Source: Marsupella aquatica
Lineage: Eukaryota; Plantae; Marchantiophyta
Reading direction: 5' to 3'
DNA: 64,000 nt
NCBI GenBank assembly: GCA_973895155.1
Contig: OZ316891.1
Coordinates: forward strand, 3,950,018 to 4,014,017
The translations under genes were made by a program, and so were the position numbers. This document shows, one piece after another, positions 16,798 to 54,526 of the stretch. Position 1 is the first letter of the stretch. Each line of letters opens with the position of its first letter. Below the pieces are notes generated by a model. The model was given only the letters and a program-made list of their open reading frames with translations, was not told where the DNA came from and ran no database searches.

Positions 16798-16837
16798 GGT
16801 GAAATTCTAAGATAGGAAGAGTCTCAGAAGTCTGGTA

Positions 16838-16849: not shown

Positions 16850-17184
16850 TGTAGAAATTTCTGAATAAGCTTAATTAACCCACGAAGGGGAGGCGTAATA
16901 TACGCAGAGAGCACAGGTCCGTTGAGCACCTGAGAGAGGATGACTCAGAGGCCACGTAGGTCATGGAACTGCCAGGCAGGAGCGACAAGTGCCAACGGAC
17001 GGTGAATGTCCTAAACAGATTTTGTCCTAAGTAACTAATGGGCAACCATAAGTAGGTCAATCTACCAATATACTAAATGACTAATCGAACAGTAAATTAA
17101 TTACATCTAAGTAGCGGCAACTAAAAGAGTTTAGCATGATGACGGCCACAAATACTAACACCGTATGTCCCTGAACTTTCAACA
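16850..17184 (-). repeat. 5' LTR of copia 1
   Basis: Direct repeat of 11313-11647. Confidence 0.97.
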
Positions 17185-19030: not shown

Positions 19031-20184
19031 ATTGGTATCAGAGCATGCTTGGGAGGTGACGTGTGTTCGTGACGGGATTTTATGACGGTTTTTCCAGCGT
19101 TGAGTGTTGGTGGATTTTCTAGAGTTCCATCGCATGGAACTTGGAGTTTATGGGCTCAACGGATAGATCAGGGCAAGAGCTTTCTAACGGTATGAAGAAA
19201 TTGTTGAACGGAGCTCGTGGTGCAGAGAGATCTAAGTTTTCATCGTTCTGGATTTTGTGAAGAAAGTTGGCAATCGACTCGGAGGGAGAAGCGTCAAGTG
19301 TTTTGACTCAACGGAGAGATTGAGGCAAGACGATTGTTTTGAGTCCGAGATTAGCTCTTTGATGCAAAGAGGAAGGCTAAGCAAAAATCAATTACCTTGT
19401 TGGACTTGGTGACGGCACCAAGTGCAATTGATCAACATTCGTTGTTGACAAGGTACCATTTTTTTCTCTTTGAAAAACTGATTCGAAATTGGCTATGGCA
19501 ATTGAGAGAAATCTGTCATCTTTACCAATTTTTTTCTCTCTCGTTCTTTCCTCGTTTTGGGTGTTTCTTATATCGATCTTCACCGCCTCGGAGTCTAGTT
19601 TCCAAATTTGAAATCAGATCTTGATTTCGTCAAAACCCGAGTGAGATATCTTGCGTTTGGTGTCGAGGGGTACATTCTGCCATGTGTATTTTCTGCGCGC
19701 GCGACCAGATTTCGACGACGAAGGGTGGTAGGGGGTTTTGGGGGTTCGAGGACACGTGTCAGCCCCTCGATTATTCTTCCAAAATTCTCACAGGGCCTGT
19801 ACAAGGGTCATAGAATATTCCAAAAAACCAGAGAGCTATTTTTTGACCGTCCGATAAAGATTTCATCCACCGAACGGTAACTTTTTTGGTTATTTTTCGG
19901 CGAGGTCGTAGCCATTGAAGTTGGCAACGCGGCGCACCAATCACATCGCAATTCCGACAACGGGTTGTACTTGGTATTTTGGTTATTCCCTGAGGTGGTC
20001 AAAACGGGGGAGTTTCCCAAGGTTTTACCCACCTCGACCGAAATTTGAATAACTTTTCCGTCAAATTTCTATTTTGATTTCGGTTTTCAGTATTGGACTC
20101 CTAACTTTGTGGGCTACGCTGCGGTGTTGAGTTTTGAGTTTTTTGAGATGTTGTGAAAAACAACATTTTTTGTGATTTTCTCAT

Positions 20185-21225
20185 ATGAGTGATTCGGAGG
20201 TGTTTTTCGAAGATGTGGAACTTGAAGCACGAGGATCACCGCGGAGGTTTCAGGGACAGAGAGAGGAGCAAGAGGAAGAGCACGTGACACCGATACCATC
20301 ACCGGTGCGGCGTGTGGTGGAGGAAGCAATACTACTACCGGAGCTCACGGTAGTGCCAAAGAAGAAGATGGGGACTTTCAAGCTTGGGGGACCCAAGTAT
20401 GAAGTGACAAAGTATGATGGGCGCTCTGACTACTTGCTATGGGAGAAGCAGGTGAAGGGAGTGCTCTATGCGTCAGGGATGGGCCAACTGCTGAGCCCTC
20501 GTGAAGACGATGTTGATGAGAAACAATGGGACCGCATGCAGGAGCAGGGAGTGTGGTGTGTTACACTCTATCTCATGCCTCCCATCATCAAGCAGTTGGG
20601 TGCACATAAGGATTGCATGTCCTTGTTTGCGGAATTGCAGAGCAAGTATCACCGCAAGGAGTTGTCGAACCGGCTCTACACTTCCTACAAACTGATGAGT
20701 TTCAAGATGAAGGAATCCGGTACGAAGTTGCAAGACCATGTGGATGCTTTCAACGACATGGTCGTTGACTTGGAAAACCTTGGGGAGACTTTGAATGATG
20801 AGACGAAGGCTCTGCAGGTTCTTAGTTCATTGCCTCCATCTTACCAGTCCCTATCACGAGTGTTGTTGCATCGTGATAGGGATACCATTTCATACAATGA
20901 CGTGATAAGTTCTCTGCTTAGTGATGATCTTCAGCAGAAGATGCACATCACGTCACAGCCTTCATCATCTGGTGTTGCCCTCAATGTTAACCGTGGGAGG
21001 AGTATGCAGCGACCAACTGGAGACCGTAGAACCCAGTTTAGATCTAAATCCAGATCTAAGTCCAAGGGTAAATCCCCTCAGAGGAGGCAGGTGACATGTT
21101 GGAAGTGCAACCAAGTTGGACACTTCAAGCGAGACTGTAAGGGAAAGGCAGCGGAAACTTCATCGGCAAATGTGGCTAGGGCTGATGAAGAAGCTGATTT
21201 ACTCAATGATGAGTATGTTTTATGA
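20185..21225 (+). CDS. Copia 2 gag (346 aa)
   Basis: KYDGRSDYLLW, UBN2-type LSSLPPSY, zinc knuckle CWKCNQVGHFKRDC. Confidence 0.9.
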   Translation: MSDSEVFFEDVELEARGSPRRFQGQREEQEEEHVTPIPSPVRRVVEEAILLPELTVVPKKKMGTFKLGGPKYEVTKYDGRSDYLLWEKQVKGVLYASGMGQLLSPREDDVDEKQWDRMQEQGVWCVTLYLMPPIIKQLGAHKDCMSLFAELQSKYHRKELSNRLYTSYKLMSFKMKESGTKLQDHVDAFNDMVVDLENLGETLNDETKALQVLSSLPPSYQSLSRVLLHRDRDTISYNDVISSLLSDDLQQKMHITSQPSSSGVALNVNRGRSMQRPTGDRRTQFRSKSRSKSKGKSPQRRQVTCWKCNQVGHFKRDCKGKAAETSSANVARADEEADLLNDEYVL

Positions 21226-23410
21226 AGCCGGGAGTATGCCCTGTGCACGTCATCTAGGAGAGCAGATGATGTGTGGATTCTTGATTGTGCTTGCTCTTTT
21301 CATATTTGTTACATTCGTGAGTTTTTCAGTTCTTACTCTGTTTCAAACGGTTCAGTTCTGATGGGAAATGATCACTCCTGTCAAATTGAGGGAATTGGGT
21401 CTGTGAAGATTCAAATATTTGATGGCGCTGTGCGCACAGTGTCCGGAGTCAGGTATGTACCTGGCATGCGTAAGAATCTGATTTTACTCGGTGTGTTGGA
21501 TTCAAATGGTCATCAATGGAGCGTTATTGATGGTGAACTTCAAGTCAGGTCGGGAGAGACAGTGATTTTGAAGGGGAGTAGACAAAAGAATTTGTATATG
21601 TTACAGGGCAATACTGTATGTGGAGAGGCCAATGTAACCAAGTCTCACGAGGAGATGACTCAACTGTGGCATTCACGGCTAGGCCACATGAGTGAGAAGG
21701 GTTTGGCTATCTTACGGAAGAATGGACTCATTTCTGATTTGCAATCTTGTAAATTAGAGTTTTGTGAGCATTGCATTCTTGGAAAGCAACATCGTCGTGC
21801 TTTTGGTGTTGGAACTCATCATTCCAAAGCGGTTCTTGAGTACATACATAGTGAAGTGTGGGGTCCATCCCCGACTCCCTCACACTCTGGAAAGTTGTAC
21901 TATGTATCATTTATTGATGATTACTCAAGATTTGTGTGGATTTATTTCATGACGCATAAGTCTGATGTCTTGTCCATTTTTAAGAAGTGGAAGGCCCAGG
22001 TGGAGAATCAGACTGGAAACACGATCAAGTGTTTGGATACAAGGGTGAAGAGTCTGAGGTCAGACAACGGCGGGGAGTACACTTCAATGGAATTTGAAGA
22101 GTACTATTCATAACAGGGGATAACTCGCCATCTCACCACAGTTTATACTCCGCAGCAGAATGGTGTCGCTGAGAGGCTCAATCGGACACTGTGGAGCGGT
22201 CACGGAGTATGTTGAGCCAATCAGGTTTACCACAAGAATTTTGGGCAGAAGCTGTCAATACCGCAGCTTATTTGGTAAATCTTTCTCCTTCTAGTGCTAT
22301 CAATTTCAAAACGCCGTTTGAGATGCGCTATAAGCGGCAAGCAGACTATCATGGCTTGGTAATTTTTGGAAGTGATGCATATGCTCTCACACCGAAGCAG
22401 AATAGGACCAAGTTGGATCCTACCTCCAAGAAATGTGTTTTTCTTGGGTACCAGAGTGGTGTGAAAGCCTATAGGCTATGGGATCCTATTGCCTGTAAGC
22501 TCGTTGTCAGTAGGGATGTTTCCTTCAATGAATCCAGATTATTGAAGGAGGGGGAGAATACTCAGGTCTCCCGTACTGACAAAGGAAAATCTCCTATCCC
22601 GGATCTCATTGAGGGGGAGATTGGTTATGAGGTGCATGACCGGAGAGAAGGAGTTGCTCCAATTATGGAGCTGGTTCCTGTGCCAGAGGAACCAGAGGAG
22701 TTTGTTGATGCTGGTGAGCAGCAAGTGGATGCTGTTGAGCTTCAAATTGTACCAGCACATGCAGATCAACCGGAGTCATGGGCTAGAAGAACATCTGGTC
22801 GCACTGTACGCGCTCCACCAAGGTATGGACAGTGGGTTGATTCATCTCAACTGCAAGAGGATGATTTTACAGCTGATGATGAGGGTGATGCGTTAATTTT
22901 GGAAGAAGGGGAACCTTCTTCATTTCATGAGGCAAGTGCTTCAAAGGAGAAGCAGAAGTGGACTGCAGCAATGAAAACAGAGATGCAGTCACTAAAGGAC
23001 AACAAAACTTGGGAGCTTGTTAAGCTGCCTAAGGGTCAGCAAGTGGTGGACAGCAAGTGGATTTACAAGCTGAAGGATAATTCCATAGGAGGTGGATCGA
23101 AGGTCTACAAGGCTAGGTTGGTAGCAAAGGGATTCACACAAGAGAAAGGTGTGGATTACAATGAGGTCTTCTCACCAGTTGCTAAGTACTCTACAATACG
23201 ACTATTGTGTGTACTTGTTGTAATGTTTGGTCTGCTGCTAGATCAGATGGATGTTGTCACAACTTTCCTCTATGGCACATTGGAAGAGGTGATCTTCATG
23301 AGACAACCGCTAGGTTTTGTGAAGAGAGGACAGGAGGATTTGGTTTGCAGATTGCTGAAATCCTTGTATGGGTTGAAGCAGTCACCAAGACAGTGGAACA
23401 AGCGGTTTGC
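21226..23410 (+). pseudogene. Copia 2 pol (PR, INT, partial RT), with a stop at 22111-22113 and a frameshift near 22190
   Basis: WILDCACSFH, WHSRLGH...CEHC, FIDDYSR, SDNGGEY, QNGVAERLNR, KARLVAKGF, QMDVVTTFLYG, SLYGLKQSPRQW. Confidence 0.93.
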
Positions 23411-24619
23411 TGTTCTCCATGAGGGATAATGTGCCCGTATGTGTATCAAATGAAAATAAAGCACATATCAAGCAACTTTGGCTGTTGGCATTGGGGAGGT
23501 CCATTTGGAAAACTGATCCCATCACAAATGCACTCATTTTTCTTGGAAGGCCAACCATTTGCAAAACCTATATCTAGGAAGGTAGGAAAGAAGGCACCTC
23601 TACAGCATATCTCAAGAGATCTCCTTTGGTGACACATTGGGAGAAACTTGTGGAAGCACTATCCAAGGAACTTAATATAGAAGGGAAGGACGAGGGGAAG
23701 GGGGAAAGACAATTTCCATTGACAACTGAGTTTTGGCCAAAGACTAACCATGCCACAAGTTACAAGGTGATTTTGGGGACATCTCAACCTTCAAGTTAAC
23801 CTACTCAAAATCCAGAGATGATGGATCTTCAGAATTTGTACATGATTGGAAGAGATGGAAAATCAAATTACATCCTTTGGTGGTGCATGACAAGAGGGAG
23901 ACTTGCACCCTGGATTCCTCTGTACAAGATATTCAGGGTTTAGGGTTTTTAGGGTTTAGGAAAGAAGGCACCTGGTAGACAGAAATAAAGGGGTCGGATG
24001 TCAAGGAGCCTTTCATGGGGGAGAATTAAGTGTGTTCATATTTAAGAGGGGGGGGGGGGGTGATTTTTTGGAGACAGAAATCAAGGGGTGTGATGTAGAG
24101 GAGCCAAACAGGAATCAAGTGGTAGCTAATCAAAAAACGAATCTCAGCCACTGTCGTGTACGTCTAACAATCACATAGCTATAGTAATCAACTAAATCGC
24201 TCATCCACTTCTGAGAGTCCTTGTAGGGCAGTCAGGAAACCAGAATTGATAGTACTTTAGATGGTAAGTACTATAAGTCGTCTTAATAATGATTCGGGAT
24301 ATAATGATAATGATTGCGATAGTTTATTAGCTTGAAGCCAGTGGAGTGAAGGAGTGAAGATTCGAGAGTGAAGATAAAAGAGAGTGAAATGAACTAGATT
24401 AAGTTGTCCCACCGATGTATGTGAGTACTCATGCCCCAGGTCCATGCAGCTAGCTGATCGAGCTGGAGAGGAGCAGGAGAGGGGCAAGGTAGTCAGGCAG
24501 CTCTGCTTCTGTAGCGATCCACCAGAAACTCCAGAGCTTGAGTGGAAGCTTGCGGAGTTAAGGCACAATACGGGAGCTAGCGGACTAGTCATAGAGGTCT
24601 TGTTCTGTAGTCCTTGATC

Positions 24620-29746: not shown

Positions 29747-31758
29747 CACAACTACATTATCTGCCTGATTAACGTAATTTAAGCAGACGTTAATTGCGAC
29801 GTTCAGCCGACGTGTGGAAAAGTCCCACCCAACGACGTTTAAGTAGCGACGTTACTAACGATGTACACCCGGACGTTCTTAACGTAGCATTACACGACGT
29901 ACTTAACATTGCCGACTGAGACATTCTCTACTTAACGTTGTATTAGACGACGTTAATATCAACGCGCCATTGTTGATAACATGGCCTATTGACGTGGCTA
30001 GAAATGACGTTAGACATTGTTTAACCAAGTTTGATACGTTGTACATTGCCATGTAAGACACCACGTTTAACGGGTACAATGTAGTTTAGTTGGTTACTTA
30101 GTGTGATGTTTCTTATGACATTTGGTACGGTCTACACAGTAAATAACATGGTTATTTGGTTCTGTATGCGGACATTGGGGAACGTAGTCCATCACGATGT
30201 TCGGAACAGTTAAGAGTGTAACACAACAGGACGTATACATGATTAGGCACGGTAGTACGTGATTAGGCACGGTAGTACGTGACTGGTTCGGGTTGTTGTT
30301 TTGGTTCAATATAGAATACATGCATTCATTATACACATTGTAACCTGGAATGATATGCCACCACAAATGGGTGTTTTGAATACAAATCCGAGATGTAACA
30401 TACAAAATTAGGCCTCCTAGCTAATGTAGTTGAGATTGCCTATCACGTCCTGACTATCCGCCTCGCCGGCGCAACTCGTTCCTCTGGTAATCCTGCTCTG
30501 AGGTACTACTATTTGGCTCCGGCGCAGCCTTGCTTCTTGTTGTTCTAGTGCTACGAGGTACCCTAGTGGAATGCCTCTCACCACTACTCTTCCTCCTCTC
30601 TCTATCTCTTCGTCTTTCTCTATCTCCCTCCTTGCGTCTCTCCCTCCCTCGTCCTCCTTCAGGGAAAAGATCATGAGAAGTCCCACGTACCATGCTGTCC
30701 GCATGGTACCGGGGCCTTCTCCTGGGTACCCTCCTCAAGCGGGACAGTGTCAGCATCCTCATCCTCTGCAATGGGTCGTGCTACTAAACCCTCTGGTGTA
30801 GTCCAATCCACCTGTATACAAGACACAGTTTCAGTCTAGGTTGGCACAAGATACGCTTTCACTCTACGTCTATGGAATGGTGTTAATACAATGTAGCCAA
30901 GGCATCACTACTTACTGGGAAGTCTTCGGGAGTTGAATCAAGCTTTGCCCATAGGGCTGCCGAGCCATATCGCTTGGAGTACAAGCGCTTTTGCTCACTT
31001 GGGTCGGCATCTCGGCCATACTTTCGCTTCTGCAACAAAAGTCACATTACGTCGTTCAAGAGGAGGTACTTTACACACCTCACTACTACGTTAAACCAAT
31101 TGCGTCGTCCCAAACAACGTTACATATTACTCGATGGCATTAACGTTGCAACGACGACATTAGGGATAGTGTAACATCGTCTCGTGAGATGTAAAGGGTG
31201 AAATACGATGATTTGAGCGACGTTCAATTAGGCAATGGAGACGTTAATCTAAAAGAACGACGTTAATTACTGTTTCACACCAAAGCAGCACCACAAGGCA
31301 TTGATTTGAATGATTGCGCAATGTGAAATGGAAGAGAACTTACATAGGTTGCAAGAAATCCTCCCCATCCTCCATGCCCCTAGAAATTCATCACCTTCTT
31401 GTGTGATGCCGTTGGTACGGCGAGTAATGAGTAATTCGGTCTAAACTGTGCTTAGCACGCGCGTTAGGGGTATCTTAGGCCGCTATTATTAGCATAACGA
31501 TAGTATTTAGGTAGCCATTATGAGTAGGAAATCATTAGTCAATAAGGGGAATTCATGTTCGGACTGGCGGCGTGTCGCCATTCGCACGCCCGGGTTGCGA
31601 GCGTGGAGGGCCCCCCCCTCGGGTCCGTATAACAAACTTAGGGAAGCGGCCACTGACACGCGCTGACTCAGACCATCGGAGTGGCCTGTACACTACAAGC
31701 TTGAACGGTCAGCCTATAAGCAATAAGGAGACGTCGGGTGATCGACGAGCCCTCAAGG

Positions 31759-31765
31759 TATAAAA
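31759..31765 (+). promoter_or_regulatory. Candidate TATA box for the LTR-internal ORF
   Basis: TATAAAA about 100 bp upstream of ATG 31867, followed by a pyrimidine-rich leader. Confidence 0.5.
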
Positions 31766-31866
31766 GAGGAGCCGACCCTTTGTAGTGCACCTGTCCATCA
31801 GTCCACGCGCCAGCTTCGACCCCAGCCCTCTCGTTCTCTCTTAGTCGCCACTGCTATCTCCTCTGA

Positions 31867-34515
31867 ATGTCGCACACGATCCTCTCCAGTTTGGCCATTC
31901 GATTCTGGACGCAGTTCCTATCTACCGGAAGACACTTGGCCGACTCATTGAAACACGCCAACCCGCGCCGATATGAAATCGAACGCGAGTACAAGAGAGC
32001 CATCCGCCTAGCAGGACGACACCACTATATCCTTAACTTTGACTACCCGTCTCAGAGCGAGCTTTACCGACCAGCAGAGGTATCTAGGTACTTCTTCAAT
32101 GGAGACAAATATATCGGTTTTTGGGAAGCATTGCTTCGGCTTCCGGATGAGGTCTTCAATATCCCGGGTATGATCGACTTGCAACGGCATCACTTTGACC
32201 ACATCCCTGCTCAGGTTCGGGCTATCATCAACAGCGGGTCCAGCACTACCCGTTCGACAAGGCCGTCTGCACTTGCTTCGGAGAACTTCTACCAGCACCT
32301 GCAGAGCTTCATGGGAACTAGACCCTCAACCGTCGGTGCCGGCCCAGTCGACCCCATACCCATACCCGCGCCAACGCAGACTCAAGCTCAGCCTCAGTCT
32401 CAGCCCTCGTCTCAGCCTCAGCCTAGCCAACCCCCACCGCGGATCGCCCCGCCAGTACAAGTATGCTCCGTCATCAACGCTGTGGACCTTAGCGACGACG
32501 ACGTGGCTACCCCACCCTTGCTCAGGCGGCCCAGAGGAGCGAACACTCAGGGGGCCGACACTACATCGTCCCCTCCCCATTTCCGGACCCAAGGAGCGGC
32601 TCCAACAGACAACATGGTGACCATGGCCGCCCCGGGCCCAATACTAACGGCGGTAGCACTACCTATGCCCGATCGAGAGGATGGGGAGGTGTCACCCTCC
32701 CCGAGCCAGTCACGGGGGAAGAAGAGGAAGGAACCCGCTGCTGCATCTGGGTTACCGATGGCCACGGTAGCCGCGGCCAAGGTGACAATGCACCGCATGG
32801 GGAAAAACATGCATAAAAACATCCTCCATCCCAAACATGCGGTGTACCTGAAAACTCAGGGATTTGAGCACCTCGCCTCTCTCCCCTGGAACACTTGCAG
32901 GTACTACAGGGAGGACATGACGGAATTCGTCAAGAATTATGATGACGCACGTCAACATACTCGGCTGCGGGGAAGGAATATGTCCCTCACGGAAGAACGG
33001 CTCAAGATGATCTTTGGGTTACCCAAAGGTGACCACCGAGTCGAATCACGGGCTCCCAGGGGCAAGGGAGCCAAGTACCAATCCTCGAGTTTTCCCTCCA
33101 AGGGATCAGTGGACAATGGGTTCGTGATGAGGACCTGCCTCATCCCCGAGATAGTTGAGCGACTGGAGTTCCAAAGGTACGCCCTCCACATGATGGAACC
33201 CCGGGGGGAGATCTCCGCTGCCCAGGTTATCCAGGTCGAGAACTATCAACCTAGGAAGTGGGCGTTGTACTTCGCTAAGAAATTCCATGAAGAGATGGAG
33301 CGGCGAAGAAAGACGCTATACATTGGCAGGAAGGCTTATTTCGCTAGCCACATTGAGATCATTCTCGAGTGGTACGCTCAGTTTGATCGACGAACCCTTC
33401 CCCGTATCAACGTAACAAAGCTGGTCCCAGCTAGGTGGGTTTTCCCGGCCTTGGAGAGACGGCCCCAACCCAAGGCCCGAAGTCCAGCGGCCACGCAGGC
33501 TTCACCCATCCCACCTCCACAAGTAGTTGTAGCCGTGGCCGAGGAGGTACCGGATGGGTCGGTAATCGCAACCGTAGATGCGATCAACCAGGCCGGGCCA
33601 AGTACAGAAGTCAGGACAGCGGAGGCCTTACTCGAGCCCTGGTCTCCCAAAGACCCACCGGTGGCTATTTTGGAGGACCAGACATTGCTAGAGGAGGACA
33701 CTCCAACCCCTTCCAACACTACGTCCCTAGGGCTGGATGTCACTGCCCCGGCCCCCGAGCGTGTTGACGTCTGCCCGTGCCCAACTCCGGATAGGCACAA
33801 CCTGGACCACCCAGAACTCTTCGTACCGGGTACATTTTTGAACGGGCTTCTAGGAGATTTCTCTCATCAAATTGCCCGGGATACCGGGGAGTTCATGGCC
33901 CGGAAGGTAGCCTGTTTCTTCAATCAGGAGTTGGTTGCCGTAGTAAAGGCAGGTCAGGCCCAGTCAAAGGCCCTTCATAGGATAGAGCGGTACCGGGTGG
34001 AGTCCGTATACTTAAAGAACAAAGTTGCGGCTCAAGAGGCTGAGCTTCTGCAACTACGACCCAAAGTTGCAACCGCCGATGAGTTGTTAGCGAAGGCGCA
34101 CGCCCTTACCGCCCTAGCCGAACAGGCCAAAGCTGGGAACGAGGCCGAGATTGCACGACTCTGGAACCAGATTGATAGTTTGAAGAATCAAACTGTCATC
34201 TGGTAGAAAGACCTGGAGGAGGCTGAAGAACGGGATCAGCGGGACACTGTGGAGATAGCCACGCTACAAGCCGAAGTGGCGCGGCTCCAAACCGAAGCCG
34301 AGAAGCAGGACCAGTTGGTGGGCAAGCTGACGAGTGACACCCAGCAGCTGGAGGAGGCATGCCAAGAGGCAGCGGAGGAGACGGACGCGGTGAAGCGAGA
34401 GAACGAATCTCTACTGGACCAGGTCCAGCTCCTCAAGGCGGACAACAACAGACTTCGTAAGCAGCGGGATGGCCGCTCCCACTCGGGCAGCTCTGGCAAG
34501 CGTGCCAGGCATTAG
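31867..34515 (+). CDS. LTR-internal protein (882 codons; single in-frame TAG at 34204-34206): N-terminal domain, P/Q-rich linker, NLS-like RGKKRK, central retrotransposon-accessory domain, C-terminal coiled coil
   Basis: ORFs 31867-34206 and 34249-34515 share a frame. The core (LPW...EFVKNY...RG..MSLT...IFGLPKG...DNGF...C...ERLEF) loosely resembles Transposase_32/ATHILA-ORF1-type domains. A homolog lies at 51237-53624. Confidence 0.8.
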
Positions 34516-35089
34516 CGGCAGAGTAGGAATAGAATAGGGTTAGGAATAGCTAAATCAGGCTATGGGGACAGGAACCTGCCCTAGTTAGAGCAGCACCGCC
34601 ATGCTGTCCAGCCTGCGTAGGTTAGGATTTCTAATAAGACACAACCCATTTTTGGACTGACAGTCAGATTAGTTAGGACCTAAGTCAGCGAATCTTCGGG
34701 CGGGAGGACACTCCGTTCCTCGACCCTTAGTATTTAGTGCACCCCTCGGTAGAGGCAGGGGGGTTTTTAGTCTCAGTGTTGGACGTCCGCGGTATGTGCG
34801 GGGAGTCCCGACCTCTGGGAGTGAAAGAGTACCAAGGGGAGGGTGTAAGACTAAGCTCGTTGGGCGAGTGTGGAGCCGGGCTCCATTGTAGTGTACACCC
34901 TCGGCCTCGGACCTGTTCACTCCAGAGCATTTGGGTCAACTAAGTGTACGCGTATGTCTCTTATGGAGTAAAATCCCTTCCCGTTATTTTCTTCATGTAA
35001 ATCGAGATTTTATGCTTGTGCGTATGTATGTGTGTGAATCTTGTGTATAGGTGCCAACGCTTGGCCGAACGCACTACCCAAGTAGTGCA

Positions 35090-35608
35090 CGGGGTGCAGC
35101 TTGCGTGTACCCCGGGTACGCAACTCTTGTATAATTGGCAGGGGTCTACATTTTTATATGGACTAAAAAGTTGGCTATACAAAATTATTAAAATTTGAAA
35201 AAACCTGGGTTTTCCACTTTTAAAAATTTTCAAGTCATATGAAAGGTTTGGTTCTCCTCTTTTTCCATATGAAATTAAAAAATATTCCTATACATGTTGT
35301 AGTTTCTATTAAAAGATTTTTAAAATTTTAATAAAAATCCTAAAAAGCTAGCTAGTTTGGCTGTAGACCCCTGTATTAAAAAAAAGTCATATAATTTGGT
35401 TTTGATCAACTTTTTATACATCAAAACATATTCGGAATTTTTTTTAAGTTACATTTTTGGATTCCTTGAGTTGAGAGGTACAAGACTTTAGTAAACTAAA
35501 ATGAAATCTAAGATGGTCTAAGGATATAGGGTCATTATAAGGAATTAAAAACTTGATTTATAAAAAGGGGAGTTGCATACCCGGGGCATGTACGTGGTTG
35601 CGAGCCCG
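35090..35608. mobile_element. MITE-like AT-rich element nested in giant LTR 1
   Basis: Imperfect TIR (CCCCGGGTACGCAACTC / GAGTTGCATACCCGGGG) around an AT-rich interior. Exact ends and TSD not resolved. Confidence 0.6.
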
Positions 35609-37529
35609 GGTTGAGCACCCATATCATCAAAATCCGGATCGAAGGCGGACAATACGAAGGCTTAGAAGCCCTTAAGCCAGGGTCGATCCTGCTATCGACT
35701 GAGGTACGGTCCGGCGGCGGAACACAAATCATACCTAGGAGGTGTCCGTATATGACGATAGGCGCACTTAGCGCTATTTTACGTAAGTTGGGTGCATTCC
35801 GTGCCTCCCTCCCTGCCCGAACCCTCATTTTGACAAAGGATGTGCCTGTTTAAGCCGAAGCCCGGAGTAAGGCCAAGGCTGACAACGTGACATCTTGCCA
35901 CTCGCTTTTCGAACAGCAGTGGCCTTGTCTCCCATACGCACTCGCTTTCCAACTGGGGTGTCCGGGGCTGCTTCGAGTTCACTAACAATCAACTTGAAGT
36001 CAGCTTCGCTCATGCCATCAGGTTTCTTATACTCCCCCGTCCTTATGCACCTGAGTTTGCGCACCTTTGCTCTCCACCTGAACCGTCGATCAGCGAGGTG
36101 ATTCACAATCTTCTTCCTGATGTGGCGGTAGTCAATCTCTCGCCCATTTCTGAATCCAGCCTGCACATCATTCAGGAGCACCTGGAACTTCTTTTCGTTA
36201 TGTACCAGCTCCTTCCAGGTCGTCCAACCGGGGCAGTGTTTAGTTACACAGGTCTGCACTCTGTTTGTGAGTGCTTTCTCATCCAGAACGTCTGGCCTTG
36301 CATCAAAAGCAGCAAGGGTGATGGTGGGGAGGTGCTCCTTGCTGGCAGGAGCTTGTTGAGGATGTGATCGCTGCTCTAAATGTGAGTGCTCCTTTCTCCT
36401 CTCTGCTCCATGATGTCGATCTCCCCTGCGTCTCTTTGACCTTGATGTCTTTGCATTGTGCTCATTGGTTCCTTTCCCCTTTCACCTTCTCCTTTCAGTG
36501 CTGCTATTTGACAAAGACTGAGATCGCCTCCTCCTCCTATGTGCTTGACGGTCCCTCCTCTCATCGTCTGCCCTGTATCTCTCATGTGCAATCCTCACTT
36601 GACTCTTGATAGGGGTTCGAGCAGTTGCCTGAGAATCTAGCTGGATCTCATAGAAGGTTGGATCGTCCCAACCATCGTCTGCTAGTGTTGGGAATGTAGG
36701 TAGCAGATCAATCGATGCCCCATCAAGCTCTCCAATGACATCTGGCGCTTCAACCTCGGCCACCTCCTCTTGGTCGGGAGCATTGGCCTCAATACTCTCC
36801 AGGTACTCTATAAACCTGGACTCCTTCGTTCCCTATCCTCCCATGAATTTCCAGCTATGGTTGAAGGCCTGAACTAGTGAATGTGTTGAACGTAGTGCTG
36901 CATGCACCTTCTCCATCTCCTCTAGATCCTCCATGGCCACCTTCACTGCATCAAAGTTCACACTGCATGGAAGGTAGCCTGGATGAGACATGGCGGGCAA
37001 TTTTGTGAGGTAGAGGAGACCAAGAGAGGTGAGGATTAGAGGTGCATTGGGGAATGTTGAATGTGACTCGCATTCGAACACGACCCCGATGTTTTCTGAA
37101 GGAAATGACCGGGGAAACGCTTAACCACGCGGGCTCGCCGTTTTGGGAAATTTACGTCATTTTAACGTCTCTTTAACGTCGCTTTAATGTCTCGTTTACG
37201 TCTCTTCCAAACGACGTTTCCTATGAGCACCTTGTCCTAAATGACGTTAAGTTTAGGAACGTTGTTCTGTAAGATGTAACCGACATCGGACGAGGTGTAA
37301 GCGGGACATTAAATGTTAGGGTTTTTGAAAAAAACGACGTTAAAACTAATATTAGGTTGTAATTTGTAGGGTTTTAAGGATGGGTTTTTGTGAGGGGTTT
37401 TGTATAGGTTTTTCTCAAATGAGAGATGGTTTTATTGGTTGCAAGACATGGTGATCTATGACTCTCTGTCCGATGACACAGATGATGGGGATACGATTGT
37501 TGGTCGCAGATACCGGGATCATGATAGGG

Positions 37530-37652
37530 ATAGGGATTATTCTCCTGATAGGAGGAGGGACTACTCGCCAGAGCGGAGGAGGGATGACTCGCCAAGAAGG
37601 AGGAGGGACTACTCTCAGGAGAGGAGGAGGGACTACTCGCCTGAGAGGAGGT
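37530..37652 (+). repeat. 24-bp coding tandem repeat x5 (RRRDYSPE)
   Basis: AGGAGGAGGGACTACTCGCC-type unit in the first TnpD exon. Confidence 0.85.
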
Positions 37653-40600
37653 CGAGACATCGTAGATCCCGACGTCATCGCCATCGAGTGAGGCAGGAAG
37701 ATAGGAGAGATAGGAGCCCCCATCGGCCATATGACGTTCATCATCATCCAGAGCCCCATGGTCACAGCTCACCTTCCTCTTTGGACGAGGGGTTTGGAGA
37801 GGCCATGGCTGCTCTTCATGGGATTGGACCAGTCCGGAAGATGCCTTGCCCTTGTAGACAATGCAAGGGTGTTGTATCTCACGAGAGGACTATTGTCGTT
37901 AGCCATTTAGGGATGCATGGTCGTCATGTACCACCAATACCCAAGGTGAGTTTCCTTCTTATTGCAAAACCATTTTGCTTAACTTTAACTATCACAAGGT
38001 TGGAGTACTTTGCCTTCAATCATGAATGCTCAAGTTTGCTGGCATGCTGAGATTTTCTTGCTTACATGTGGAACAGATTCTGGTTGTGCCGTCACCTCCT
38101 AAGGACAGCATGAGAGAGGTTGCACGTCGAGCTCTGACTGCACTGGTATTGCGTTTGATTATATATGACTTTGTATCAAATATTGAATTTCACAATTGTA
38201 GGATGGTGCATATGTTACTCCTACACCTCACCCATCCATGATGACAATGTCAGTGCGTGCCTTTCACCTACGTGCCACTCTAAATTTTGATGATGATGAA
38301 GATGATGACTTGGAGCCTAATGATTTGGATAGTGACCATGAGGAGTACCATGATGCATATGATGGAGAGTTTGATGAGGATGATGGAGATGAGGGGGATG
38401 CACCCATTCTTGAAGAGGATGCATTTTCCCACCTTGTGGACATTCACTTTGGACCACATGCACCTGAGGGCATGAGGCCTACCATGGAAGTAGACCAGGA
38501 TGATTGGGACTAGTTGAAAATGGAAGCCAAAACTCCACTCTTCTTGGATTCTCCATCATCACGGTAAGCTTCTTTTTTTCACAATATTAAATGAAATTAG
38601 GGTTTGATCTAGCCCAAGACTCTACTTATGAACTTGTACAGGCCACACTCAATGTCATACCTCAAACTAATTATCCCCTAGTTTCACGAATGCAGGTTGG
38701 GTGCCACTTTGCTGATGTTGAATTTGCAGGGAGTTTTCAACACTTCAGACGTCCATACAGATGCACTCTTCCAACTATTCCACCAAAAACTCTTGCCCCA
38801 ACCAAACACTCTTCCTGGTTGTGTGAGGGAAGCTAAGAAGTTGTTAACCTCAATTGGATTGGCTTTAGAGACTATCCATATGTGTCCAAGTGGATGCATC
38901 CTATACAGAGGGACATACTTGGACGACACAGAGTGCCCAGAGGCACAATGTAAGCTTCCACGATACCGGCCCAACACCATTGGCGAAAAAATTCTAGAGA
39001 AGGTGAGATAAGATCTCCTGCTATGATCGGAAGACATTTGTTACAAAATTAATGTAGGAGTCCATAGAGTTACGTTTCAAAAAATGTTGTTTAAATTGTC
39101 TAGTGCGGCTTTTTCCCATTTGACGTTGTCTAGGTTAACGTAACAAACTTTTACAACGTATATCAGGAGGTATCTTACGTATCATAGTATATACGACGTA
39201 CCTTACATCTTACTCAATGACATAAAATTATTATCGTCATTACTGACGAGGTTACTTTAAACCTGCCGACGTTATGAACGTCGTCTCAATTTACCTCGTG
39301 TATCACAAGGTATTTAAGGTAACACGATGATTTGTTCGACGTTTAATCTCAATTAACGTCGGAGGGTTCGTTGTGACTGTGGTTTTTGCAGGTCTTCAGG
39401 TATTTCCCGATCACACCCCGACTACAACATCTGTATCGACAGAAACATCTATCGGCACTCCAAACTTGGCATGTTGAGAACAAGTCCCCACCAGGGATTA
39501 TGCGGTATCACCACGACAGCCCAGCATGGAAGCATATTGACACCACTTGGCCTGATTTTTCTCTGGAGCCGCGGAATGTTTGATTGGGGTTGGCAATAGA
39601 TGGGGTAAACCCATACAAGCAACGACGCAAGCCTAAGTCCATATGGCCAGTTCTCTGATAAATCAGAATATCCCTCCATGGTTGGCGATGAAGAAAGGTC
39701 ATGTTCTTCTCCTCGCTATCATTCCTGGTCCTCAAGCCTGTAAGAATCCGGATATTTGTTTGGCTCCAGCTTATGAAGAATTGCAAAAGCTATGGGAGTT
39801 TGGGGCAGTGACCACAGATGTCACTCGTGCACCGGATAATGGGAGGACATTTCAGATGAGGGCGATGATCACCCACTGCACCACTGATGGTCCAGGTAAT
39901 GCTCAGTCACTGAAAATTTTTGACATGCATTGTGCAAGGTCCTATTGCATGGGTCAATGTTTATGGCCTAACAATTTTTTTCCATTCATTCACAGGTATG
40001 GCCACAATATCCGGGTTGAAGGTGGCTGGTTATTCTGCTTGCCCTTCATGTGGTCCCGAGTTGCATGGGAGATATTCTAACCACTTGCACAAAACCACAT
40101 ATGAGGGCAATAGGGTTCGATTACCAATGGATGATATCTTGCAACATAATACCACACATTGGGCTGAGACTGAGTTTAGGCCATGTCCCAATGGGCCCTC
40201 AGCTGAGGCCCAAATTCAGATGGCAGAGAAAGTGGAGGCAAAGTTACTTCAACCCAAGCACTCTGGTGTCAATAGGCGCTCAGCTTTATGGGACTTGCCA
40301 TATTGGAGGGTAAGTAAAATAAATTTACCTTCTTTTAAGTTAGTGACTTGTAGACTTATTTTCTTTATGAATTTCTTACTAACAAAACCTGATTCTCCAC
40401 TCATTTTGCAGATCCTCCAGATACGATGGTTGTTGGACCCCATGCATATTGAAGTAAATGTTGCCAAGAACCTGGTGAAGCACATTTATGACATGAATGA
40501 TACTCGTGGGGTCCGAGAGGATGCAAAGCAGGTTGGAGTGGTGAAGAGTTGTTGGATAACTCGAGATGGGGAGAAGCCACCTGCTCCTTGGGTTTTTCCA

Positions 40601-40957
40601 AGACAGATATTGAAGGAGATGAACGGGATGATATGTGAAATGAAGTTCCCTAGCCATTACGTAGCCGGCTTCCGTGGGTGCACTACAAGGGATGACCACA
40701 TACCCCCAATAGGCTTGAAGTCTCATGATTATCACAAGTTGATTTAGCATGTGTTACATGCTGTCTTGCATTGTTGCGATGATTCTAGAGAGCGACGCCT
40801 ACTCCGACATACAGTATATGAGTTGTGCTCCATTTTCAGGTGAGCATATTCTTGTTGGCATATATTTATGCTATGATCATTGCATATGTTTATCATACTA
40901 ATAATTTGATAAAATTTTGAGTACCCCATACAGGTGGGTATGCGCCAAGGAAATAAA

Positions 40958-42755
40958 AACACGATTTCGGACCGAACGAGAACTATTTCCTCTAAACGAG
41001 AAGTGTATTTTCATTTTCTGCCGAATCTCGCGAAATCGGCAGTTTTTTTCATCAAAAATACGTTTTTGGGGAAATAATGTAATTCGTATCAGAGTTCGGA
41101 TTGAAACAGCAAATTTAATAATGATCAAAACCAATGAAATTCATGCTAACAAACATTCATATTATCAAGGAACAATTAGATCCGAAAAACTTTCTCCTCA
41201 ACCTCATATTCACGCTCTCCGAAGATATATGAAAGGTCTTATCTATAAATCCATATCCACGTTTCGAGCCAAGTGCGATAACTGTATTGGACTCCGGATT
41301 TGAATGAGCCATGAAAGCTCTGACCCAATCTCAGTTTTCTCAATTTTCTCAGTTTTTGGATATTTACCAAAAATATTTTACATCACAGTCGATAAGAATT
41401 ACTTTCGTCAAACTTACCTTGCAGTTACCTCCGCAATTGACCAGTTACCTCCGCAAGTGACCATAGTCAACATGCCATTCTTTCAACAGCAATGCACAGT
41501 CCGATAAAATTATCACGAAAACTACGGGCGACAAAAATACTAGTCGACAATACTAAGATCCTTCGGTTCATCGGTTAAATTTCAAAATTCCTATCCATAT
41601 GAAGAAAACTCTTCGCAATACCAACATCAGATAAATTTATCGCTTCAATTTCAAAATTGCAACTTCCATATGAAGGAACCACTTTTGCAATACCAACATC
41701 AGATAAATTTATCGCTTCAATTTCAAATTGCAACTTCCATATGAAGGAACCACTTTTGCAATACCAACATAAGATAAATTTATCGCTTCAATTTCAAAAC
41801 TATATAATTTTGCCACGATGCACGTGTGAGAATGAAATTGGAAATCCAAGAAATATACCCTTTTCTGCTATTTTATCGTTTAGGGTGACAGCCAATCAAA
41901 AGTGGACATGTGGGCCAACCCCTCAACAGACACTATAAATGGGCCACTGCCGATAAGTTTTTCGCATAGGAGGATGCGATAAGTTTATTGCACTCCGCAT
42001 TCGAATTGAAAATATGACTTCCTCAGACACCTAAGCCCTAAATTCAATCTTTCACAAAAATGACAACTCCGATAAATTTATCAGATTCTCGATTACTCCT
42101 CTTTCCATGAAAGGAATGAAGACTCCGATAAATTTATCAGAATGAAGGCAACACCTCTCTAAACACTGGATCAAATGATTGCAATAGAGGAATGCAGAAT
42201 GCGATAAATTTATCGCAGTCCGCTCGGATCTGGACATTTTACACTAAATGACTAGTTAGTCTTACATGGAGAACTTGAACAGGAATGGCTGTTCCGATAA
42301 ATTTATCGGGTTTTTGGTAGAAAGAGTCGAATCGCTTGGGAGGAATGTAAGACTCGATGGGAGTTTGGTATTCGCTCTCAGTCAGGAGATATTTGCTCTG
42401 GCAAAAGCAAATGTTTTATGGGCAGCCCGCTCCTCTTTATATAGGAGACGCTCTAAACCATGGTTAATTTCCCCTTAACCATGGTTAAGTTTCCCCTTTA
42501 CCTGGGTTAGTGCGTGGTCATTCCTGGATTACGCGGTTCGGACCAAGTTACTCGCAGTTCGGACTTTTTCACTGACGGAATGTAAAACCCGATGCACGTA
42601 TCGCTCCCTCCATTCCCGCGGCGATGCAATGGAGGAAAGTGGCGTTTTGGAGAGTTTTTGCCAGTTTTATCGGTCATTGCATTGCCTTAGAAAAAAAACG
42701 GGATCGGGCTAAACGAGAACTCCGACACACTTCTTGGTCGGTCCGAAATCGTGTT
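40958..42755. mobile_element. 1.8-kb non-autonomous TIR element inserted in a TnpD exon
   Basis: Perfect TIR AACACGATTTCGGACCGA / TCGGTCCGAAATCGTGTT. TSD TAAA (or AA with a 19-bp TIR). Removal restores WVCAKEIKESEIP. Interior has ~72-bp repeats (41580-41800) and seven GATAAATTTATC palindromes. Confidence 0.9.
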
Positions 42756-43389
42756 TAAAGGAGAGTGAGATTCCCGAGATGAGGGAACGTTCTGCCCGTG
42801 TTATGTGCAATATGGAGAAGGTGTTTCCCCCATGTATTTTTGACATGCAGTTGCATTTGCTGTCATTTGGTGGACGAGGTAGCCATTGCTGGTCCAGTGC
42901 ATGCGCGGTGGATGTATTGGGTAGAGCGGTTCATGAAAGTGCTAAAGTCTTGGGTGCACCAACCCGCTTGACCAGAGGGAAGTATGGCAACAGGGTATAT
43001 CATGTCGGAGTGCCTGTTCTACTCAAGCGGGGTGATAGGGAGTTTGGACACACAAGCTCCCATAGCTTGGGAAGAGGCACAAGATGATGACAACGGTGGG
43101 TTGCGAGTGATGGGCGCGTCAAAGAAGAGATCATTACATGATGACATTTTTTGCCGACAAATCCACAATTATGTGTTAGAGAACCGCACGGAGATGTCAG
43201 ATTGGAGAGAGTTGTATAGGTAGGGACGTAATCCTTAATGTTGAGTCCTACTTAGATTTAAAATGTACATTCAAGGTTTAGGGTTTAGGGTGGTCAGTAA
43301 TGTATATGTGACCTAGTACTTGCAGGGCATGGGTGGAGCAGCAGCGGATAGGGGCAACACGAGAGCGTGTTCATGCATCATTTTGCATC

Positions 43390-47010: not shown

Positions 47011-47355
47011 TGTTGAGCATAGACGACAATTGCAACGGCAAGCCCATGAACCATCCAACGCACAAGAGTCGACACAGAGAGATACGTGGTTCACCTCCAC
47101 ATGAGGCTACATCCACGGGAACACACAAGAGCTTTACTGCACTCTAGGCCGACCGGCCATACCAAGCATCCATAGCACAAGCTCTCTCTATCTCTCAACT
47201 AGCACCGTAAGAATGAGCCTGAGTTCCACCTCTCCAAACAAACACCGCTTGGTTATAGAGTGTGCACAGCATGACTAACCTAACCAAGTCTGCAACTAAG
47301 GTTAGCCTTAACTACGGTATAGTCGTAACTCTAGATCTAAGAGTTTATCCTAACA
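47011..47355 (-). mobile_element. Solo LTR of the copia 2 family
   Basis: Reverse-complement homolog of 18628-19030 with TG...CA ends. Flanks CGGCA / TGGCA (5-bp TSD, one C>T). Confidence 0.9.
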
Positions 47356-50674: not shown

Positions 50675-53600
50675 TGTGACACGGGTAACGTGTCACTTAA
50701 CCAAATGCAGGTCCTAGATTAGGACCTCGATTAGGACTTATACGGTCATTAGGACCATAACCGTAGCGTAGAATAGCACAAATAGCCATATTTTGCCATT
50801 ATGAATAGATTAGGATTAGGTTAGTTGACCGAATGATTACGAATTAAGGAAGAGGATTATTACGCTTGACTGACATACGGTGGCGGCGGCGGAGTAAAAC
50901 TCCGTTGGGAGATCACGCTTGGACCGAGACGCCAACTTCAGCTCATTAACGACCAAAACGGCCTTGCCCTCTCACGCTCGAGCTCACCCTGGCACCCCCC
51001 CTAAGAGCGGAGTCGATGGCGCTGTGGGCCATTTGCTCATTTCTACCTTTCGGAATTCGCGGATGCTGCCATTCACTCTCGCCTTTTGCTCGAATCAAGC
51101 TGACCTTTACGAGGAGATTATCAAGGGATAAGAGCGGATTGTGGCAAGATTTAGTCAGGGCGAGTAAGGCCTCCACCAGCAAGCGGACCGGCCGGGCGGG
51201 AACGCGGACTTGATGAACCAGACTACAAAGGTTAGTATGACCCTTACAGCCTTGGGATTTTGGACCTTGTTTGGCGAGGTGGGTGCTAAGCTCTCCAAGA
51301 CTTACTGGTACTCTTGCCCCGAGAAAGCCACTTACGAACAAAGATAAGCGAAGTTGGTGGCCAAGGTAGCACAGGTTAACTGTGAGAAGACAGCCATCAC
51401 CAGGGATTCTAGTTACAACAAGCTACGGGATTACATCACCGAGCTATATATCAGTGAGGAAGGGTTCAGATCGGTGGCAGAGGCAATTCTTGAAGTTCCC
51501 GCAAAGTTCTTTAGGTTGAGGGGCAGCCAGAGACTGACTCCAACGGAGTTTGACAAGATTCCAGGATACATCAACCAGCAGATTGCAGCCGAGAAGCGTG
51601 AAGAAGACATCAGCTGATAACGAGAAGCGACGCGTAACCTTACATTCCTCGGGGAAAGCTCCAACGCCTTCAACTGGGATATGGCTACCTCGACACCACC
51701 CCCAGCTCCTCAGCCGATGACCACCGACGTACCACCAAACCGGTCCCAAGTTTGTCCCATGAACAACACCGAGTGTTCTTCGGGTTCCGAGCGTGTTAGT
51801 CCACAGCTTGAGTAGCATTCTCAGAAGCGGGCAAGGATGATGTCGGCCCCCAAACCGACAACGCGAACCAACGTCGCCCCTGCACCTGCCCCAACAAACC
51901 CCTAACAAACCAGACCCAATGGCCCGCGGATAATCCAAAGTCTAATTTATTACAGGCAATCCGCGTCTCCGAGGTAGTCTGGATCGCAATCAAGAAACTT
52001 GACCACACGGACTATCTCAAGGAGCATCAATTGGAGCAGTTCGCTCACTTGCTATGGAGACTGTGCGCAGCCGGGCCAAATGAGATTTGTGAGTTCATCT
52101 CCAATTTTGACACTGATGCATCAATCACCAAGGTTTCAGGATAGACCTTTTCACTCACGAAGCATTGGCTGGGACAGATCTTCTGTCTGCCAACCGGGCC
52201 GGTGTCGGTTGAACTCCAAATTCGGGATAAGGAGTATACACCTCGGCACTTCAAACCCGAGGGTAAGATAGACAACGGATACAAGCAGAGGTCGTGCACC
52301 AACTTAATCAGACTTATGGAGCGGCTTAACTTCATACGGACTACCCTACACATAGTTGAGCCACGATCCGAGATCTCCCTCTGCACGATCATACAGATGG
52401 GAACAATACAAATGGCGGAACTAGGCCCAATTCTTTTACCGTAGGTTCTTGGGGGAGCTTAAGCGGGCTCAAGGAGGTATGGCTATTGGGGGGAAGACTT
52501 ACCTGGGAAGTCATATCGCCATCATCCTCGCCTGGTACAAGGCATGGCGGGAGGCCAGGGGAAAGAATATGGCCACCTCAGCCCCGACTAATGTCACCCC
52601 CGCTCTAGAGGAGGCTACCTCAAGCGAGCGGACTATCGTGCCTCGGGCAAACCCCGAGCCGGAGGCCTTGACTAATACTCCGTCATCTCCCCCGGTTGAA
52701 ATTCCACCGCCCCCTTCCGTCGAGCCTCCGCTACCCCCGGTACAACCACCTCCAATCCCTCCACCACATGAAGAAACCTTCCCATCCCCAGTGCAAACTA
52801 CGGAGGAGCTTGCCACCCCGCCTGAGGAACTGCCGATGCCTGAGAGGATGGAGGACTACCAAGTAGCCCTAGGGACCATGGCCTACGACCTGGTCCAGAA
52901 GTTTAGCCAGACTATGTCAGGGGAGCTGGCGACGTACATTGGGCAACAAGTCTTGGCGTACTTTCAACCAGCCTTCTTCATGTTGGAGCACCAACCACGG
53001 ATCATAAGCCACTTGGAGGAAGAACTCATGGCAAAGGGGAACGAGATCGTGCGCCTCCAAATGCTGGTAGAACACCTTGAGGAGGAGGCCACTACCCGCC
53101 GTGAGGAGTTAGTCCGCACTGTTGAACAACGGGACGGACTAACCAAGGAGTTGTGCAGGGTGTAAACGGATCTCAAGAAGCTGGATGACACCGTGCTTCA
53201 GTTGCGCTCAGAATCCTTGGCTCGGGTTACCAGCCTGACCGACCTTAACAACCAATTCCTGCAGGCAGCTCAGCAGGTGGTTAGTCTCTCTGCCGAATGG
53301 GATAAATTGCTGGCGCAGGACTAGACCCATTGTGACTCCATTAACCAGCTCAACCTAGAGGTAGCACGGCTCCAAGCAAAGGCCAATGAGGCGGCAAACG
53401 AGGTAGAGGAGGCGGTACAGGATAACAAGGCCTTGCAGGACCGTGTTACCCTACTCATCCTCCAGCGAGCAAGACCTGGGCCCGCCTCTGATCAAGGCGG
53501 CTTGAGGTCTTGCCCGACAGGGGGAAAAACCCTGGTCCGACCACAGCACGCACGTAAGGGGTGGTTAGCGAAGGGTGGGAGCAGACGCCGCGCGAGGCAG

Positions 53601-54526
53601 TTGAGTCAGCGGCATCTTTTTTAGGCTTAACGACAGAATAGCTATCATTAGGCACTGATTAGCGGCACAGTAGGAAGAGTTAGGATCAGCCAACATAGGA
53701 TAGAGTCCACAATGGACTAGATTTTGGTCGGTAGACTTAGCTGCTGCCACCCCGGTCAGCGTCCTTGCCGCCGACGGTCAACCGGTCAGAGCAGTGCGGC
53801 CGGTTAGTCAGAAGGTAGTTAGTCAGTAGGCATTACCCCGGAAGGTAGTATCTTTAGGTTCCTTTCCGCAACCATAGTATTTAGGCTTCCCCTTCCGTTG
53901 TGGGAGGGGGAGAAGGCTTAGTTATCTCAGTGCAAGAAAAGGCGAGGCACGGGGAGTCCCGGACTGAGCAGGGTCAGAGTGCACTAAGGAGTGAGAGCCA
54001 GAGTCGAGCTTGCTGGGCCAGCACGGGGCGGGGCCTCGTAGAGACTGGGCATCGACTGCCGTTGGGCCTACTGGCCCCCTTAGAAGTCAAGTCAACTATG
54101 TAAACTGATTCTTTGCTAAGTAAATGTAGTCTTTTCCCTCTGATTCTATTGCGTGTAGCTGGTGTTGTGTGTATGTTTTGTTTGGGCAAAGGCGCCATTT
54201 CAAGGGACGTACTGGGTGCGGACTAATGGTAGGGATTGCCACCCATTGCATACTACAAGGTTCTTTCGCGTCGATGGCTTGAAAGCCCCAAGCCGGGAGT
54301 TAGTCCGAGTCACTAACTGTGGGAATATTCCAGCGGTGGAAAACAAATATACCTATGACCAGTACGAGTTGCGTAAGTATTATACCAGCGAGTATATTGA
54401 CTTAGCCCGACTTAGGGCTAATCGAGGCCACTACACACCTCCTTGCCCAAACCCTCAACCCTACTGGTGGTCGAGGTCGCCCCATGGAACTAAACTGGAT
54501 TTAAGGCCCGGGTTAGGGGCGCGACA
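50675..54526 (+). mobile_element. Giant solo-LTR-like unit 2 (3852 bp), related to unit 1
   Basis: TGTGACACGG...GGGGCGCGACA termini like chromoviral gypsy LTRs. Flanks TCTTC / CCCTC (possible TSD with two C/T differences). Interrupts the CT repeat. Confidence 0.8.
51237..53624 (+). pseudogene. Degraded homolog of the LTR-internal protein
   Basis: LGFWTLF...EAILEVPAKFF..FDKIP; EFISNFD..QIFCLPTG..GKIDNGY..SC..LMERLNFIR..LHIVEPRSEIS; IGGKTYLGSHIAIILAWY; then P-rich and coiled-coil segments collinear with 31867-34515. Confidence 0.85.

Follow-up and report, generated by a model that had tools for sequence, protein, structure and literature searches.

A gene with a predicted VANC/PMD-like fold in a likely solo long terminal repeat of a liverwort

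Introduction

The described systems closest to the locus reported here are accessory genes of plant transposons. VANC21 binds a nine-base motif in the non-coding DNA of its own element and causes methylation to be lost there (PMC5735166), and VANC has been reported to be structurally homologous to the plant mobile domain (PMD) of MAIN/MAIL1 (PMC13547354; bioRxiv 2024.09.27.615353). PMD-A clades are encoded by gypsy elements (PMC5418596), host PMD proteins have been linked both to silencing and to anti-silencing (bioRxiv 2024.09.27.615353; PMC5418596), and the transposon PMD proteins have been proposed to oppose Polycomb (bioRxiv 2024.09.27.615353). In bioRxiv 2026.08.24.746577, anti-silencing is discussed for DNA transposons alone. 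Here, we describe an insertion unit, U1, and its diverged homolog, U2, in a 64,000-nt stretch of the genome of the liverwort Marsupella aquatica (contig OZ316891.1; hereafter the window, within which all positions are given). U1 carries an 882-codon gene and is likely a solo long terminal repeat (LTR).

Results

A repeated insertion with defined ends

The insertion consists of the following features.

31397..31401, no strand: left target-site duplication (TSD), TCTTG, present as a single copy at the empty site
31402..35892, plus strand: U1, likely a solo LTR, TG...CA, ~4.0 kb once a nested miniature inverted-repeat transposable element (MITE) is discounted
35893..35897, no strand: right TSD, TCTTG, read from the sequence
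~35105..35589, no strand: nested AT-rich MITE with 17-bp inverted arms (~485 bp; ends approximate)

U1 is a genuine repeated insertion with independently supported boundaries. It spans 4491 bp, from TGTGATG to CGTGACA, and has TCTTG at each side, a perfect 5-bp duplication within the 4-6 bp range by which solo LTRs are recognized. Copies were followed in contigs of four public sequencing runs aligned to the locus; five of the six listed runs contain part of U1. The flanks were joined without U1 in contigs of three of the four runs, and in contigs of three of the four the left flank continued into a single TCTTG, so that the duplication arose on insertion of U1. Other copies stopped at 35892 and were followed by unlike sequence in all four runs (5 of 23, 5 of 29, 7 of 28, and 6 of 31 records ended there; agreement beyond the end was 0.49-0.55). 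At the 5′ end, copy sharing was seen only as a rise in contig depth. Summed depth, which is not a copy number, was ~1e4-4e5 across the whole of U1 and ~3e2-5e3 in the flanks (X1/X2). The ends, the TG...CA termini, and the TCTTG duplication proposed in a first-pass annotation of this DNA were thus borne out by the sequence, the empty site, and the copy end shared at 35892.

The absence of gag and pol frames, also proposed there, was upheld by reading the frames and by a Pfam scan of the unit. Local alignment of the U1 ends exposed neither a direct nor an inverted repeat (scores of 21 and 24; shuffled sequences averaged 20 and reached 26 at most). An arrangement of two LTRs around an internal region, as in large retrotransposon derivatives or terminal-repeat retrotransposons in miniature, or in deletion derivatives, was not seen, as neither U1 nor U2 has a direct repeat at its termini. 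An Rfam search of U1 returned no match at E<=1, and no ribozyme was evident.

The size of 4.5 kb given at first holds for this copy. Contigs of all four runs bypassed the MITE, which was missing from other copies of the U1 family, so that the family unit measures ~4.0 kb. Its 17-bp arms also make the statement that U1 has no internal repeat inexact, although terminal repeats are indeed absent. The MITE contains an inner inverted pair, CAGGGGTCTACA...TGTAGACCCCTG, at 35139-35373. Some contigs, up to 2.9 kb long, matched the MITE part of U1 alone; it is therefore also present elsewhere by itself.

A second unit with the same layout

50675..54526, plus strand: U2, a diverged, decayed homolog of U1, TGTGACAC...GGGGCGCGACA, 3852 bp

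U2 is older than U1 and was inserted in a CT-rich repeat. It retains a homolog of the U1 open reading frame (ORF) at 52.0-53.5 kb (tblastn; 36% over 139 columns, E 1e-19), broken by several stops and frame changes, and it has no terminal repeats when its ends are locally aligned and compared with shuffles. The 3′ non-coding parts of U1 and U2 could be aligned (scores of 105 against 27+-5 and 57 against 23+-3 for shuffles), and a 12-base word, CGGGGAGTCCCG, was identical at 34799-34810 in U1 and 53950-53961 in U2 and occurred nowhere else in the window. The 5′ non-coding parts barely aligned (33 against 25+-3; shuffle maximum 32). From these comparisons, U1 and U2 appear to be two old subfamilies with one colinear layout, comprising ends plus gene, which fits solo LTRs, unlike a chance deletion.

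The ends resemble TGTCACACCC-GGGCGTGACA, the LTR ends of Retrosat2/RIRE8 (PMC3485330). Duplications of 5 bp are found in 93.4% of plant LTR elements, and plant LTRs reach ~5 kb (PMC6317226). We consider it likely that U1 is a solo LTR. The annotation's proposal of a gypsy solo LTR with a gene inside the repeat thus stood in its first part, for which the common copy ends, the empty site, the U2 layout, the lack of terminal repeats, and the Retrosat2/RIRE8-like ends make a solo LTR the best fit; the LTR status, the gypsy label, the orientation, and hence the position inside an LTR are what we infer from such features. Since conservation lies in the 3′ 0.9 kb, we favor the plus orientation, which places the ORF in U3. 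It is possible that the ORF is instead antisense to the element, as in Retand.

The gene and its protein family

The gene and the parts of its product lie as follows.

31867..34515, plus strand: ORF, 882 codons long, interrupted at codon 780 by a single premature TAG (34204-34206)
31867..32241, plus strand: helical domain at the N terminus, aa ~1-125, conserved among homologs; model confidence (predicted local distance difference test, pLDDT) 57
32764..33450, plus strand: core domain, aa 300-528, with a predicted VANC21/PMD-like fold; RGKKRKE, resembling a nuclear localization signal (NLS), stands before it
33960..34512, plus strand, start approximate: C-terminal predicted coiled coil, cut by the premature stop and intact in the homolog P0043

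The ORF fills about two thirds of the LTR-like unit. Having a premature stop, the U1 copy is probably decaying. The coiled coil is predicted from weak coiled-coil Pfam matches below the cut-off and a periodicity peak of 3.5. In a U1/U2 alignment of 279 codons, identity by codon position was 0.46/0.54/0.34, and nine of 32 four-fold sites matched. With synonymous sites saturated and the protein kept, the ORF appears to behave like a selected gene. Twelve of 24 indel rows were listed, of which two fell in the ORF (one in frame), four in the MITE, and six in other non-coding DNA; leaving out the MITE, the distribution among the listed rows gave p 0.02, a weak hint.

A search of 1.84 billion representative proteins with the core (aa 300-528) returned 41 matches at E<=0.001. 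An organism was named for eight of the 20 clusters checked, in each case Calypogeia fissa, and P0036 likewise came from this species. P0043 is an intact relative of 906 aa, with 30% identity over 805 columns, and it has the same order of parts as the U1 ORF, namely N-terminal domain, low-complexity linker, basic motif, core, linker, and coiled coil. It was also the row nearest to the U1 core in the tree of 28/29 aligned cores (support 97/91). The basic residues R395, R432, and R446 were conserved across the family. P0028, a repetitive protein and probably a false match, was excluded from the alignments.

A word-based protein search with the single ORF confirmed none of 518 candidates, and the alignment query returned only two relatives already known. 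Long fused forms of 1587-4530 aa were absent among 3270 candidates, which is weak evidence. Families PF20167, PF03078, and PF10536, suggested at the outset, had no sequence match; PF03078 and PF20167 (ATHILA and Transposase_32) surfaced just as weak Atlas leads, at 0.77, and the N-terminal domain gave a lead to Transposase_28 at 0.79. Two neighboring gene-model pairs of Calypogeia, P0049/P0011 and P0050/P0048, were 98-99% alike and were considered as an LTR pair, but their numbering runs in opposite order, so no pair was shown.

The predicted fold of the core

The core (aa 300-528) was modeled with AlphaFold2 from a 29-sequence alignment, with a pLDDT of 90.1 and a predicted template-modeling score (pTM) of 0.88. 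The top Foldseek match was the VANC21-DNA structure 9lnj_A (E 0.032, probability 0.96, TM 0.53, root-mean-square deviation [rmsd] 5.6), the runner-up being far behind (E 1.8, probability 0.02). VIA-align, run against 48,161 chains, placed 9lnk_A first with Z 8.1 and rmsd 4.4 over 212 of the 229 residues, and its runner-up had Z 2.2. A sequence search of the core against the PDB returned no match. The VANC match is of moderate strength, yet credible because the two methods agree, the match stands alone, and the whole domain is covered, and on this model the core probably shares the VANC/PMD fold.

Of the two regions for which a fold search had been advised, only the core gave a specific match. 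The N-terminal domain was modeled poorly (pLDDT 57) and matched generic helical hairpins, at a best Z of 6.8. Given that VANC shares the PMD fold and that PMD-A is encoded by gypsy elements, the core fold is in keeping with an accessory gene of a gypsy element. The chromatin or anti-silencing role guessed before any structure was predicted gains independent support from the modeled likeness to VANC21.

Non-coding parts of the unit

31402..31866, plus strand: TTAG-rich non-coding part 5′ of the ORF; TAGTATTTAG at 31501, TATAAA at 31759
34516..35892, plus strand: 3′ non-coding part, conserved with U2, with TAGTATTTAG at 34728 and a stable hairpin at 34810-34930

The 5′ part is a candidate promoter of the ORF, and the 3′ part a candidate R/U5. 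The most enriched 4-mer common to the non-coding parts of U1 and U2 was TTAG, mostly on the plus strand, with counts of 18 against 7.6 and 22 against 9.8 expected, exceeding all 300 shuffles. TAGTATTTAG has three occurrences in the window; two flank the U1 ORF and the third is in U2. This word has seven letters in common with the VANC21 motif YAGTATTAY, yet YAGTATT occurs 20 times in the window. As targets of the protein, TTAG and TAGTATTTAG may serve as leads. Results for hairpins were mixed, since two of four plus-strand pieces folded better than shuffles (z -4.5 in U1 and -3.2 in U2) and the counterparts of these two pieces in the opposite unit did not.

Discussion

A putative self-activating solo LTR

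Taken as a whole, we lean, by a little, toward reading U1 as a solo LTR of an abundant gypsy-type family, with a VANC/PMD-fold gene whose product is a likely DNA-binding self-activator. On this reading, insertion by an integrase would have been followed by LTR-LTR recombination and the loss of gag-pol. The ORF may have begun as a 3′ extra ORF that was taken into U3 when the site of plus-strand priming shifted beyond it, in which case a full element would hold two copies of the gene and a solo LTR one. The core domain would likely bind short motifs in the non-coding DNA of the element itself, while the C-terminal coiled coil would likely serve oligomerization, and the NLS-like motif is predicted. 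Acting in trans on its own family, the protein would keep copies active against methylation or Polycomb silencing. By analogy with VANC, U1-type elements may thus switch off host silencing of their own copies.

Several observations weigh against this reading. For the LTR, no primer-binding site (PBS) was seen next to U1 copies in a mixed 3′-end consensus of 23-31 contigs per run in the four runs, and neither a polypurine tract nor a pair of units around gag-pol was seen in the contigs of these runs; scans of viral and metagenome contigs gave no locus, one viral-contig scan confirming one stretch for which no locus was returned. The flanks of U2, TCTTC and CCCTC, agree at three of five bases, that is, with two mismatches in the duplication. 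For the gene, Pfam held no relevant family for the ORF or for the 37 of 41 homologs scanned (PMD, DUF1985, ATHILA, and Transposase_32), and the protein-guided U1/U2 alignment gave a synonymous divergence (dS) of 2.4 and a nonsynonymous divergence (dN) of 0.82 at saturated synonymous sites. For the fold, identity between the core and VANC21 is 9-10%, with an rmsd of 4.4-5.6 A and a Foldseek E above 0.001; a best Z of 7-8 is typical for models lacking a clear match, according to the VIA tool note, and a shared fold by itself shows no function. For the regulation, TTAG was picked as the best among all 4-mers tested and forms no tandem arrays in U1 or U2, unlike many VANC targets, and the TATA box reported in the first-pass annotation is present in U1 at 31759 but has no counterpart in the homologous 5′ part of U2. 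As no pol gene linked to U1 or U2 was found, the gypsy label comes from the Retrosat2-like ends and the PMD-gypsy link only.

Alternative explanations

The alternative that survives best, although we hold it improbable, is that U1 is a solo LTR with a gene whose protein plays another role, such as steering integration, organizing the pre-integration complex, or handling the element RNA. All of the structural evidence for a solo LTR applies equally here, gypsy extra ORFs are without an established function (PMC6317226; PMC7264820; PMC11963269), the match to VANC21 is distant, and the N-terminal domain has no assigned fold. Set against it are the nature of the sole solved relative, a sequence-specific anti-silencing factor bound to DNA, the conserved R395, R432, and R446, and the short motifs enriched in the non-coding parts.

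It is quite unlikely that U1 is a DNA transposon, non-autonomous and lacking long terminal inverted repeats, with a VANC-like gene as its only cargo; such an element would be VANDAL-like or mobilized by an integrase-type transposase. VANC is known from Mutator-like DNA transposons (PMC5735166; bioRxiv 2026.08.24.746577), the whole unit is present at many places, and no link to gag-pol was found. Nevertheless, TG...CA ends together with a 5-bp duplication, here confirmed by the empty site, are the LTR signature, the ends of U1 resemble known LTR ends, and U1 has neither a ~9-bp duplication nor long inverted repeats nor a transposase frame. Mutator-like (VANDAL) elements have duplications of about 9 bp and a MuDR transposase, and Ginger-type elements have long inverted repeats.

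A deletion derivative of a short-LTR element with an internal ORF, as in Retand, Grande, Athila, and Retrosat2, is very unlikely, for although the plant extra ORFs in PMC7264820, PMC11963269, PMC3485330, and PMC6317226 are all internal and the N-terminal domain has a weak Atlas lead (0.79) to Transposase_28, a domain of the Retand antisense ORF, the direct repeat expected at its ends is absent in U1 and U2, and two saturated subfamilies with the same end-to-end layout would demand the same deletion twice or an amplifying LTR-less derivative.

The insertion site and the remainder of the window

37394-43220, plus strand: decayed CACTA tnp2 gene with matches to Transpos_assoc, Transposase_21 (E 9e-15), and DUF4218

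U1 interrupts a minus-strand frame at 35894-37120, which is open for 194+7 codons across the site and lies in repeated host sequence, divergent from the plus-strand tnp2 gene. The claim that a CACTA gene was interrupted was right in that the frame is open across the site and adjoins tnp2; the frame itself had no Pfam match, and its CACTA identity is plausible only. No CACTA termini could be singled out. The tnp2 gene has an RS-rich 24-bp repeat near its start.

Elsewhere, the window holds a minus-strand Ty1/copia element at 11313-17149, whose 300-bp LTRs are 98% alike and whose gag-pol is spread over three long frames. Another copia gag-pol, at 20176-23429 on the plus strand, is interrupted by stops. 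The segments 18798-19030 and 47011-47244 are similar in inverted orientation and may be related LTR pieces. On the minus strand at 59973-62625, long frames encode what, judged by eye from the translation, is a STE20-like protein kinase; no introns are evident, and it is possibly a retrocopy. Tandem arrays of ~146-150-bp units are located at 58085-58882 and 4200-4757, the latter within an inverted pair at 3557-3665/4981-5060. No tRNA genes were found in the window.

Comparison with known systems

A retroviral protein gene inside U3 is known from mouse mammary tumor virus, in which sag is copied to both ends of the element and left in solo LTRs. The U1 ORF is much longer, its protein and host are unrelated to those of sag, and its place in U3 would follow from the orientation that we favor.

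Within plants, the family-wide accessory ORFs of gypsy elements, including TRP28 of Retand, gene23 of Grande, the Athila ORF, and ORF0 of Retrosat2, RIRE3, and RIRE8 (PMC7264820; PMC11963269; PMC3485330; PMC6317226), are like the U1 gene, and in the same accounts their products have nuclear or DNA-binding predictions and coiled-coil regions, as does the U1 protein. Retrosat2 further has LTRs of more than 3.2 kb, many solo LTRs, and ends like those of U1 (PMC3485330). However, the described gypsy extra ORFs are internal and so are lost from solo LTRs, while that of U1 is within the LTR-like unit. If this placement is true, the loss of gag-pol by recombination would leave a regulator behind, which would change the view of solo LTRs.

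At the level of the protein, the nearest system is VANC21 of the Mutator-like Arabidopsis element VANDAL21 (PDB 9LNJ/9LNK; PMC5735166), for which the predicted core fold is alike (Z 8.1, TM 0.53). In both cases an accessory gene is borne by a transposon with short motifs enriched in its non-coding DNA, and VANC has a coiled coil outside the domain (PMC13547354), as is predicted for the U1 protein. Unlike the U1 gene, found in an LTR-like unit of a liverwort, VANC is borne by DNA transposons and has been described as dicot-specific (PMC13547354). The U1 protein has 9-10% identity to VANC21, an extra N-terminal domain, and no tandem motif arrays, and anti-silencing would be its role by analogy. 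VANC and TnpA are established examples of sequence-specific anti-silencing in DNA transposons, and the U1 gene suggests a testable function, with candidate target motifs, for the extra ORFs of gypsy elements.

Proteins of the PMD family (PF10536) include PMD-A in gypsy extra ORFs (PMC5418596; PMC6317226) and the host proteins MAIN, MAIL1, and MAIL2, and have their fold in common with VANC (PMC13547354; bioRxiv 2024.09.27.615353). PMDs have been described from angiosperms, and the gypsy extra ORFs stand up- or downstream of gag-pol and not in the LTR; the U1 gene has no PF10536 match in sequence and its ORF sits in an LTR-like unit. A VANC-fold gene in a bryophyte bears on whether PMDs originated in retrotransposons or in host genes, a question raised in PMC5418596. 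In Marchantia, trimethylation of histone H3 lysine 27 (H3K27me3) marks transposons as well as genes (PMC11982613), and the U1 family could therefore be used to test the idea that PMD proteins act against Polycomb. With considerable reserve, one might go further and see here a liverwort retrotransposon lineage with a VANC-type, sequence-specific anti-silencing gene and its target motifs inside the LTR. Each solo LTR would on that view be a self-activating module, able to wake its family in trans after gag-pol is gone, and the VANC/PMD fold would be an ancient tool of retrotransposons, older than the PMD proteins of angiosperms and the VANC proteins of eudicots.

Our literature search, which extended to few subscription papers and covered ORFs inside plant LTRs, Calypogeia retrotransposons, and VANC-like retrotransposon proteins, did not turn up this arrangement. 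Compared with the systems above, U1 appears, on its sequence, to be a real feature that combines known kinds, with the placing of a VANC/PMD-fold gene in an LTR-like unit as what is new.

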